Sequence record: PQ571288.1
Direction: 5' to 3' (one strand)
DNA: 44,405 bases
DNA from: Escherichia phage EC3-1
Below are positions 4,014 through 4,042 of the stretch, piece after piece; position 1 is the first letter of the stretch; each line of letters opens with the position of its first letter. Under the pieces are notes generated by a model. It was not told where the DNA came from. It saw nothing but the letters and a program-made list of their open reading frames with translations, and did not search any database. Both the position numbers and the translations under genes were made by a program.

Positions 4014-4042
4014 TTGACACGTGAATAGTTCGCTATTATAGT
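4014..4042 (+). promoter_or_regulatory. Strong sigma70-like promoter (type A): TTGACA, 17-nt spacer, TATAGT, with AATAG-TTCG-CTATT palindrome in spacer
   Basis: Consensus -35, 17-nt spacer and near-consensus -10, read directly; drives the gene at 4075. Confidence 0.7.

Follow-up and report, generated by a model that had tools for sequence, protein, structure and literature searches.

A palindromic AATAG-N4-CTATT element recurs in the sigma70-type promoters of Escherichia phage EC3-1 and may be the operator of a small Cro-like protein

The promoter at positions 4014..4042 of the Escherichia phage EC3-1 sequence (record PQ571288.1; 44,405 nucleotides, hereafter the window) carries between its hexamers the palindrome AATAG-N4-CTATT, and the same palindrome recurs, in both orientations, in other promoters of this genome. 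This raises the question of what the element does: whether it is bound by a protein of the phage or its host, is recognised by a phage-encoded RNA polymerase, or is a symmetric part of a promoter cassette that has been copied around the genome. The genome is that of a Kagunavirus (Guernseyvirinae); the first 25 kb of the window match ~500 phage records, the best of which is Escherichia phage vB_EcoS_fFiEco03 (92% identity). The motif is real, is present in nearly all host-type promoters of the phage and is strongly selected. On balance it is probably the operator of a phage-encoded dimeric helix-turn-helix (HTH) repressor, for which the likeliest candidate is the 71-aa 434-Cro-like protein encoded at 3734..3949 on the minus strand.

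Exact copies of AATAG-N4-CTATT are found eight times in the window (at 184, 4024, 6760, 10322, 23364, 32544, 43039 and 43197), against 0.04 expected by dinucleotide shuffles, none of 100 of which reached eight. Four further copies with one mismatch (3980, 32453, 34361 and 39780) compare with ~1.2 expected, two-mismatch copies are at chance level (22 versus 16.8 expected), and the 16-bp form TAATAG-N4-CTATTA with up to two mismatches gives 11 matches against 1.4 expected. The copies lie on both strands, the gap between the half-sites is constant at 4 bp and the consensus of the dyad is (G/T)AATAG-N4-CTATT(A/C). Seven of the eight exact copies are free of coding bases, the eighth (10322) falling in the last codons of the VRR-NUC gene, directly upstream of the next gene, and all eight are found at gene boundaries. 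A first-pass annotation made from the letters alone had reported the palindrome as embedded in sigma70-like promoters of both orientations and had proposed a genome-wide search for its intergenic enrichment. The motif counts, together with the promoter frames given below, bear out the recurrence and the enrichment alike, and the location at gene boundaries is the opposite of the chance-level occurrence within coding sequence that would have spoken against the motif.

The dyad is framed by sigma70-type -35 and -10 hexamers at 17-bp spacing, relative to which it takes three different registers. With x as the first base of the -35, the 14-bp dyad of the type A promoters, which serve the replication genes, occupies x+10..x+23, where it fills the spacer and has one base in common with the -10 (TATAGT). 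In type B promoters, which serve the early genes and accessory cassettes, it occupies x+16..x+29 and its distal half provides the -10 (TACTAT). In type C promoters, which serve the late genes, the dyad lies over the -35, the hexamer being made up of the N4 and two further bases. The three type A frames match the sigma70 hexamers at 11/12, 11/12 and 10/12 positions, and all seven framed promoters of types A and B point to the next gene on their own strand:

4014..4042, plus strand: type A promoter TTGACA-17-TATAGT, with dyad 4024..4037 (AATAGTTCGCTATT) in the spacer; operon from 4075.
6750..6778, plus strand: type A promoter TTGACA-17-TATAGT, with dyad 6760..6773; DUF2815 and DNA polymerase genes.
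10312..10340, plus strand: type A promoter TTGACG-17-TATAGT, with dyad 10322..10335; gene at 10374.. and helicase genes.
185..213, minus strand: type B promoter TTGCAC-17-TACTAT, with dyad 184..197 over the -10; leftward early small genes.
23348..23376, plus strand: type B promoter TTGCAC-17-TACTAT, with dyad 23364..23377; superinfection-immunity and metallophosphoesterase cassette.
32528..32556, plus strand: type B promoter TTGTAG-17-TACTAT, with dyad 32544..32557; 70-aa moron at 32591..32803.
43040..43068, minus strand: type B promoter TTGCAC-17-TACTAT, with dyad 43039..43052; second leftward early cluster.
23370..23398, minus strand: candidate divergent partner promoter TTAACA-17-TAGTAT on the same dyad 23364..23377; faces the tail chaperone/tape-measure operon.

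The 4014..4042 promoter is conserved in 36 Kagunavirus loci with a variable N4. At 10322 the promoter frame is unchanged, but the dyad is flipped to the reverse complement of the 4024 copy. The type A and type B promoters had been listed by the first-pass annotation, whose coordinates stand for 4014..4042 and 6750..6778 and for 185..213(-), 23348..23376(+) and 32528..32556(+). The third type A promoter proves to be TTGACG at 10312..10340 rather than TTGACA at 10314..10342, and the fourth type B promoter lies at 43040..43068(-), not 43039..43067. Two inverted blocks that join the 185 and 23348 type B promoters are exact reverse complements, as had been stated, and form a 37-nt inverted repeat (178..214 and 23347..23383), the span 23345..23378 noted before being off by 2. 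A supposed variant at 576..604 falls away, as only one half-site is present in its spacer, with an AATAG 11 bp upstream, and the primase-operon promoters of relatives are without the palindrome. The overlap of dyad and -10 holds for type B and, beyond the one shared base, not for type A. Late promoters with an imperfect copy over the -35, and a further copy at 3980 in the promoter of the gene at 3734..3949, had been missed.

Selection on the element was assessed in orthologous promoters from 62 IMG/VR loci and three complete genomes, identified through the gene that follows them and without reference to the motif, with divergence counted over five promoters between the window and phage SETP13 (Jerseyvirus). 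Between these two phages, 1/50 positions differ in the half-sites, 14/20 in the central N4 and 9/12 in the 4 bp between the -35 and the dyad (Fisher's test of half-sites against N4 plus flank, 1/50 versus 23/32: 4e-12), with the -35 hexamer differing at 5/18. Within Kagunavirus, the dyad of the 4014 promoter takes at least six N4 forms while its halves are fixed. By these counts the half-sites are under strong purifying selection, tighter than that on the -35 hexamer. Fixed halves, a free centre, a fixed gap, a flipped copy and three registers together argue for the site of a symmetric dimer and not for a contact of RNA polymerase, a single such contact being ruled out by the three different registers. 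The earlier suggestion that the palindrome is a plausible operator of a dimeric regulator fits the stronger conservation of the half-sites over the -35, the free N4, the flipped copy and the existence of copies that lack a promoter.

The motif itself is not new. In the supplement on the Kagunavirus phage fBC-Eco01 it appears at orthologous places as seven 20-mers (e.g. TGAATAGTATCCTATTATGT) termed 'phage RNAP promoters' (RNAP, RNA polymerase), which PHIRE had found with the consensus tgAATAGTa-ccTATTat-T (PMC9825357). For the Kagunavirus phage Golestan the comparison is by number, seven PHIRE promoters being reported there as well (PMC7203180). Both papers take their sites to be those of a phage RNA polymerase, which the genome does not encode, and make no mention of the dyad symmetry, the sigma70 frame, the three registers or any candidate binder. 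No RNA polymerase gene is found among the 77 annotated genes of fFiEco03, and no RNA-polymerase domain in the ten open reading frames (ORFs) of the window that were scanned (all those of at least 416 aa in the gene calls made here). Moreover, the motif is palindromic, stands in either orientation to the genes downstream of it, with one copy flipped, and is framed by sigma70 hexamers, which is not the behaviour of a directional consensus. The absence of a polymerase gene and the palindromic site contradict the label, and it is exceedingly improbable that the motif is the promoter of a phage-encoded polymerase. What is new is the reading as a dyad, the sigma70 frame and the three registers, including those at late promoters, as well as the comparative evidence for selection and the case, made below, for one of two candidate binders.

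A gene map built from the fFiEco03 annotation and the ORF list of the window places a rightward replication block at 634 to 12844, with genes for an HTH_17 protein, a primase-helicase, a DUF2800 nuclease, a DUF2815 protein, DNA polymerase A, a VRR-NUC protein and an SNF2 helicase; the gene at 3734..3949, coding for an XRE protein, lies on the opposite strand to this block. Tail genes (13007..23240), head genes (25517..38038) and lysis genes run leftward, two small rightward cassettes occupy 23418..25488 and 32591..32803, and the small early genes form a leftward block from 150 across the window ends to ~41100. This map confirms the earlier placement of the elements upstream of early, replication and moron genes. 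The late promoters and the copies outside promoter frames are as follows:

39760..39788, minus strand: type C late promoter TTGACT-17-TATATT, with one-mismatch dyad 39780..39793 over the -35; directly after a terminator.
32433..32461, minus strand: type C late promoter TTGACT-17-TAAGCT, with one-mismatch dyad 32453..32466 over the -35; heads a leader before the spanin and head genes.
32460..32475, no strand given: perfect 16-bp palindrome AACTATTCGAATAGTT, with half-sites tail-to-tail and one half in common with dyad 32453..32466.
43197..43210, minus strand: orphan exact dyad without a usable -35, ~14-20 nt upstream of terminator 43183..43162(-); conserved in Kagunavirus.
34361..34374, no strand given: orphan one-mismatch dyad without a usable -35; adjoins terminator 34379..34394.

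The 16-bp palindrome had been recorded before, correctly as a perfect one, at 32459..32474, one base off. The late dyad at 39780 is imperfect in every Kagunavirus and Jerseyvirus locus compared, and its faulty half is genus-specific (ACTAG-TTGA-CTATT in Kagunavirus, AATAG-TTGA-CTAGT in Jerseyvirus). An imperfection that is conserved while the faulty half differs between genera looks like selection for a weak late site. The orphan copy at 34361 is probably a scar, since this position is occupied in SETP13 and fBC-Eco01 by a perfect type B promoter with a moron, an accessory gene, while the orphan dyad at 43197 could be an auxiliary operator or a promoter scar.

Several features adjoin these copies. 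The sequence GGTGTAACAGG (43211..43224) directly adjoins the 43197 dyad and occurs as a tandem duplicate in several Kagunavirus contigs, e.g. L006 at ~14637..14661. Downstream of the 32461..32433 promoter lies an untranslated leader of ~220 nt (32208..32461, minus strand), closed by an intrinsic terminator hairpin (32252..32233) immediately ahead of the spanin ribosome-binding site. Between the window, fFiEco03 and Jerseyvirus SETP13 this leader is ~95-100% identical, much more so than the genome on average, and it has an RNA fold z of -3.2 and no Rfam match. Its layout resembles that of lambda PR'-6S RNA-tR' and would imply an antiterminator; alternatively, it could be a DNA-level site. A 28-nt exact inverted repeat (453..480 and 32229..32256) holds one terminator hairpin (GCCCCGCTTTATGGCGGGGC) in both copies, and terminator modules, like the promoter modules, are to judge from such repeats copied within the genome.

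Repeats of this kind are what would be expected if no trans-acting factor were involved and the palindrome were a symmetric pair of -10-like sequences (TACTAT/TATAGT/TATTAT) in a bidirectional cassette that was copied by recombination and retained because either half is usable as a -10. Each half-site does read TAnnnT on one strand, 23364 and 32544 have promoter-like hexamers on both strands, and in the SETP13 counterpart of the divergent pair at 23364 (Imm/tail) the arrangement is symmetric, with each half-site positioned as a -10. The 37-nt exact inverted repeat connects two promoters, and promoter/terminator modules and scars flank morons. T4-type mobile promoter cassettes (PeSL) are likewise repeated promoter/terminator modules that flank small accessory genes, with a stem-loop downstream of the promoter, and the near-identical copies in the window (37-nt promoter and 28-nt terminator repeats) similarly suggest recombination or gene conversion. 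Unlike in PeSL, however, the palindrome is part of the promoter core, and selection acts on the sequence of its halves. The type A promoters are unidirectional, and apart from one base neither half contributes to a working -10 there, yet the two halves vary less than the -35; in type C promoters the -35, and not the -10, is covered by the dyad; orphan dyads without promoters are conserved; and fixed halves with a free N4 and a constant 4-bp gap are the signature of a dimer site. A pure cassette is for these reasons a rather improbable explanation. Cassette copying is probably how the sites spread, while the conservation of halves that do not act as a -10 is left unexplained by copying.

If the dyad is the site of a dimeric protein, the genome offers two recognisable DNA-binding proteins, XRE and HTH_17, both of which the first-pass annotation had named as possible binders, the latter as AlpA-like:

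3734..3949, minus strand: gene for the XRE / 434-Cro-like HTH_3 protein, 71 aa, with Pfam, PHROG and solved-structure matches; proposed dyad-binding repressor.
3980..3993, minus strand: own promoter of the XRE gene, with a one-mismatch dyad (AATAGTACCATATT) over the -10 (TACTAT, 3986..3981); type B-like.
634..813, plus strand: gene for the HTH_17 (AlpA/excisionase-like) protein, 59 aa, with a Pfam HTH_17 match; rival binder.

The XRE protein matches PF01381 (HTH_3) at 48.1 bits over residues 11-65 (cut-off 23) and PHROG transcriptional repressor families. Among proteins of solved structure, the closest is 434 Cro, likewise of 71 aa (E 1.8e-6, residues 6-68). When it is aligned to the 434 repressor, the equivalents of Gln17, Gln28 and Gln33 are kept and that of Gln29 is replaced by Gly. 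In complexes of the 434 protein with its 14-bp operator, the outermost adenine is recognised by Gln28 and position 4 by Gln33. The presence of A at both contact positions in ACAA and in AATA is consistent with binding by the XRE protein, but is not diagnostic of it. The XRE gene is divergent from the 4014 promoter, and dyads lie over both promoters, that of the XRE gene (which has no recognisable -35) being 44 bp from the 4024 dyad.

Identity of the XRE protein to that of the window is 94-100% within Kagunavirus, ~50% in Jerseyvirus and ~40% in Cornellvirus, and no other recognisable transcription regulator is conserved in all three. Jerseyvirus carries TAATAG-N4-CTATTA six times. The Cornellvirus phage Shemara is without the exact AATAG-N4-CTATT dyad and has nine matches to TAWTAS-N4-STAWTA with at most one mismatch against 0.81 expected, which are intergenic and in several cases in predicted promoter frames. 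All three genera thus have a 6-N4-6 dyad at promoters, and the XRE protein accompanies the element in each. In RNA-seq of the Kagunavirus K1B4, an HTH-domain gene is among four early genes, with timing resolved at gene level (PMC12645636); judged from gene order only, this gene is taken to be that of the XRE protein.

The HTH_17 protein has a DNA-binding fold by its Pfam match and is found in Kagunavirus and Jerseyvirus at ~70% identity. Its gene was not found in Cornellvirus, which itself lacks the exact dyad, and this distribution first made it attractive as a required binder. That candidacy was rejected on account of two Kagunavirus contigs, L006 and L026, and of the related dyad still present in Cornellvirus. 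The HTH_17 gene was not found in either contig, which nevertheless keep six and three dyads, respectively, along with XRE proteins 100% and 97% identical to that of the window; the HTH_17 protein is thus not needed for maintenance of the dyad. In addition, two HTH_17 alleles (~70% identical) coexist in Kagunavirus with the same dyad, and proteins of the excisionase type usually bind direct repeats. That the 59-aa HTH_17 protein is the binder is accordingly quite unlikely. Of the two proteins named at first, the XRE protein, which accompanies the element in all three genera, is favoured, while the AlpA-like one is missing from lineages that keep the element. Antitermination of the AlpA type was also ruled out, as the phage HTH_17 protein is only 59 aa in length and the site is a 14-bp dyad. 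AlpA of Pseudomonas aeruginosa is a large Q-like antiterminator protein that forms a ring at the RNA exit channel, with a 6-bp asymmetric loading site (ABE) between the -35 and -10 and a sigma-dependent pause; it is unrelated to the HTH_17 protein and not comparable with it (PMC9371919). Two ORFs take the place of the HTH_17 gene upstream of the primase gene in L006 (12559..13144) and L026 (3624..4209), one of 47 aa that resembles a zinc ribbon (CxxC...CxxC) and one of 149 aa for which Pfam gave no match. This amounts to a swap of modules where the replication operon begins.

Several observations weigh against the XRE protein as the binder, or against the operator reading as a whole. The type B half-site doubles as the -10, and part of the half-site conservation therefore has another cause. 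The recognition helix of the XRE protein differs between Kagunavirus (SQGAINQ) and Jerseyvirus (SQSLITH), whereas the two genera share one dyad. In Klebsiella phage VLCpiS11a, of the Guernseyvirinae, an XRE homologue is present and no dyad is over-represented genome-wide, so that presence of the XRE protein is no predictor of the motif. The late promoters also carry putative repressor sites, for no evident reason. Finally, the true binder could be one of several small conserved proteins to which no function is assigned. The varying recognition helix and the case of VLCpiS11a would favour an operator bound by something else, either such a small phage protein conserved across the genera (e.g. 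those encoded at 4251..4751, 42290..42493(-) and 38151..38411(-)) or a host factor common to E. coli and Salmonella. None of the conserved small proteins has a recognisable DNA-binding domain, however, and the XRE protein is the sole recognisable regulator shared by the genera, with its gene between two dyads. Against a host factor, Shemara also infects Salmonella and has a different dyad, and an informal comparison with the consensus sequences of host transcription factors (CRP, Fis, IHF, NrdR, TrpR and SlyA) brought to light no fit. A different binder is therefore considered an unlikely, minority explanation.

Covariation of the XRE recognition helix with the dyad was dropped as a line of evidence, there being too few independent lineages and no clean pattern. 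Loci L039 and L056 were uninformative as natural experiments, the former coding for an unrelated longer repressor and the latter having a frameshifted XRE gene. In VLCpiS11a (L066), the region upstream of the XRE homologue (7901..8119) contains a perfect 12-bp palindrome, ATACTATAGTAT, in a promoter. It is made of the same ACTAT/ATAGT half-sites in the opposite arrangement, in a genome without a repeated dyad.

With the XRE protein as the favoured repressor, a mechanism may be proposed. From the comparisons above we infer binding of the dyad by a protein, the XRE protein as that binder, repression and a temporal logic alike. The good host-type hexamers indicate that the promoters need no activator, and the registers, 6 and ~15 bp apart and not on one helical face, are at odds with any single geometry of activation. 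A dimer seated on the spacer, the -10 or the -35 would exclude RNA polymerase in every register. The XRE protein would be made early from its own weak promoter, where the imperfect operator would limit its own synthesis (autoregulation). As it accumulated, it would turn down the early and replication (middle) promoters through their perfect operators, and the late promoters, with conserved imperfect operators, would be least sensitive. A broader version of this proposal is tentative and rather doubtful: that one 71-aa Cro-like protein may govern essentially every promoter of strictly virulent phages of Kagunavirus and Jerseyvirus, and in relaxed form Cornellvirus, through one operator in three registers, with perfect copies where the early and middle promoters have it over the spacer or -10 and deliberately imperfect ones where the late promoters have it over the -35. 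Operator quality would then set the temporal programme, and the infected cell would be 'immune' to transcription from a co-infecting relative.

The closest known system is that of 434 Cro/cI. Like the XRE protein, 434 Cro is a 71-aa single-domain HTH_3 protein; its operators (ACAA-N6-TTGT, in OR and OL) are of 14 bp with conserved outer bases and a free centre, as is the dyad, and they similarly lie inside sigma70 promoter cores. In both phages the regulator gene is divergent from the replication-gene operon, with operators over both promoters. Unlike 434, the phage has no cI partner, integrase or lysogeny module, and phages of this kind are reported as virulent; in place of two tripartite clusters it has single sites at ~12 places; and the half-site sequence is different, with Gly at the Gln29 equivalent of the XRE protein, whose binding to the dyad is a prediction. 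The proposed logic is also like that of the lambda-type Cro, an early small repressor that lowers early transcription, including that of its own gene. It differs in that the sites here also cover middle (replication), moron and late promoters, over which such control would be exerted.

Therapy and food safety are uses for which phages of Kagunavirus and Jerseyvirus have been widely put forward, against E. coli K1 and uropathogenic E. coli and against Salmonella, and very little study has been made of their transcription programme. Should a single small repressor indeed control most of their promoters through a single 14-bp operator, the temporal programme gets a simple explanation, the 'phage RNAP promoter' annotations in GenBank records and papers can be corrected, and a compact repressor/operator pair with graded operator strengths would be available for engineering these phages. 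The element would be of an ordinary kind among phage control elements, unsurprising to a specialist and leaving the general view of phage regulation unchanged, while being useful for the annotation and engineering of therapy-candidate phages.

Some further features of the window lie beside these elements. Downstream of the 6750 promoter and ahead of the DUF2815 gene, the 5' untranslated region holds a hairpin (CTGGCCGGGCAGCTTCCCGGAG) at ~6785..6810 on the plus strand, which is conserved in Kagunavirus, Jerseyvirus and Cornellvirus above the level of the surrounding sequence and may be a translational operator or an RNA-processing site. The coding fraction of the genome is 91% by the gene calls made here, and Rfam and tRNA scans of the window returned no Rfam family and no tRNA. 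The window starts inside a leftward gene with its start codon at 150 (1..150 and 44179..44405), and its 44,405 bp agree with the genome lengths of relatives; the window probably represents a genome that is complete and circularly permuted. A non-coding region of 420 nt (214..633) separates the early promoter from the HTH_17 gene and has strong hairpins at ~268..292 and ~456..478. A minus-strand frame at 571..544 (TTGACA-16-TAAAAT), which matches the sigma70 hexamers at 11/12 positions, is directed into it; this region could be an origin of replication or code for a non-coding RNA.

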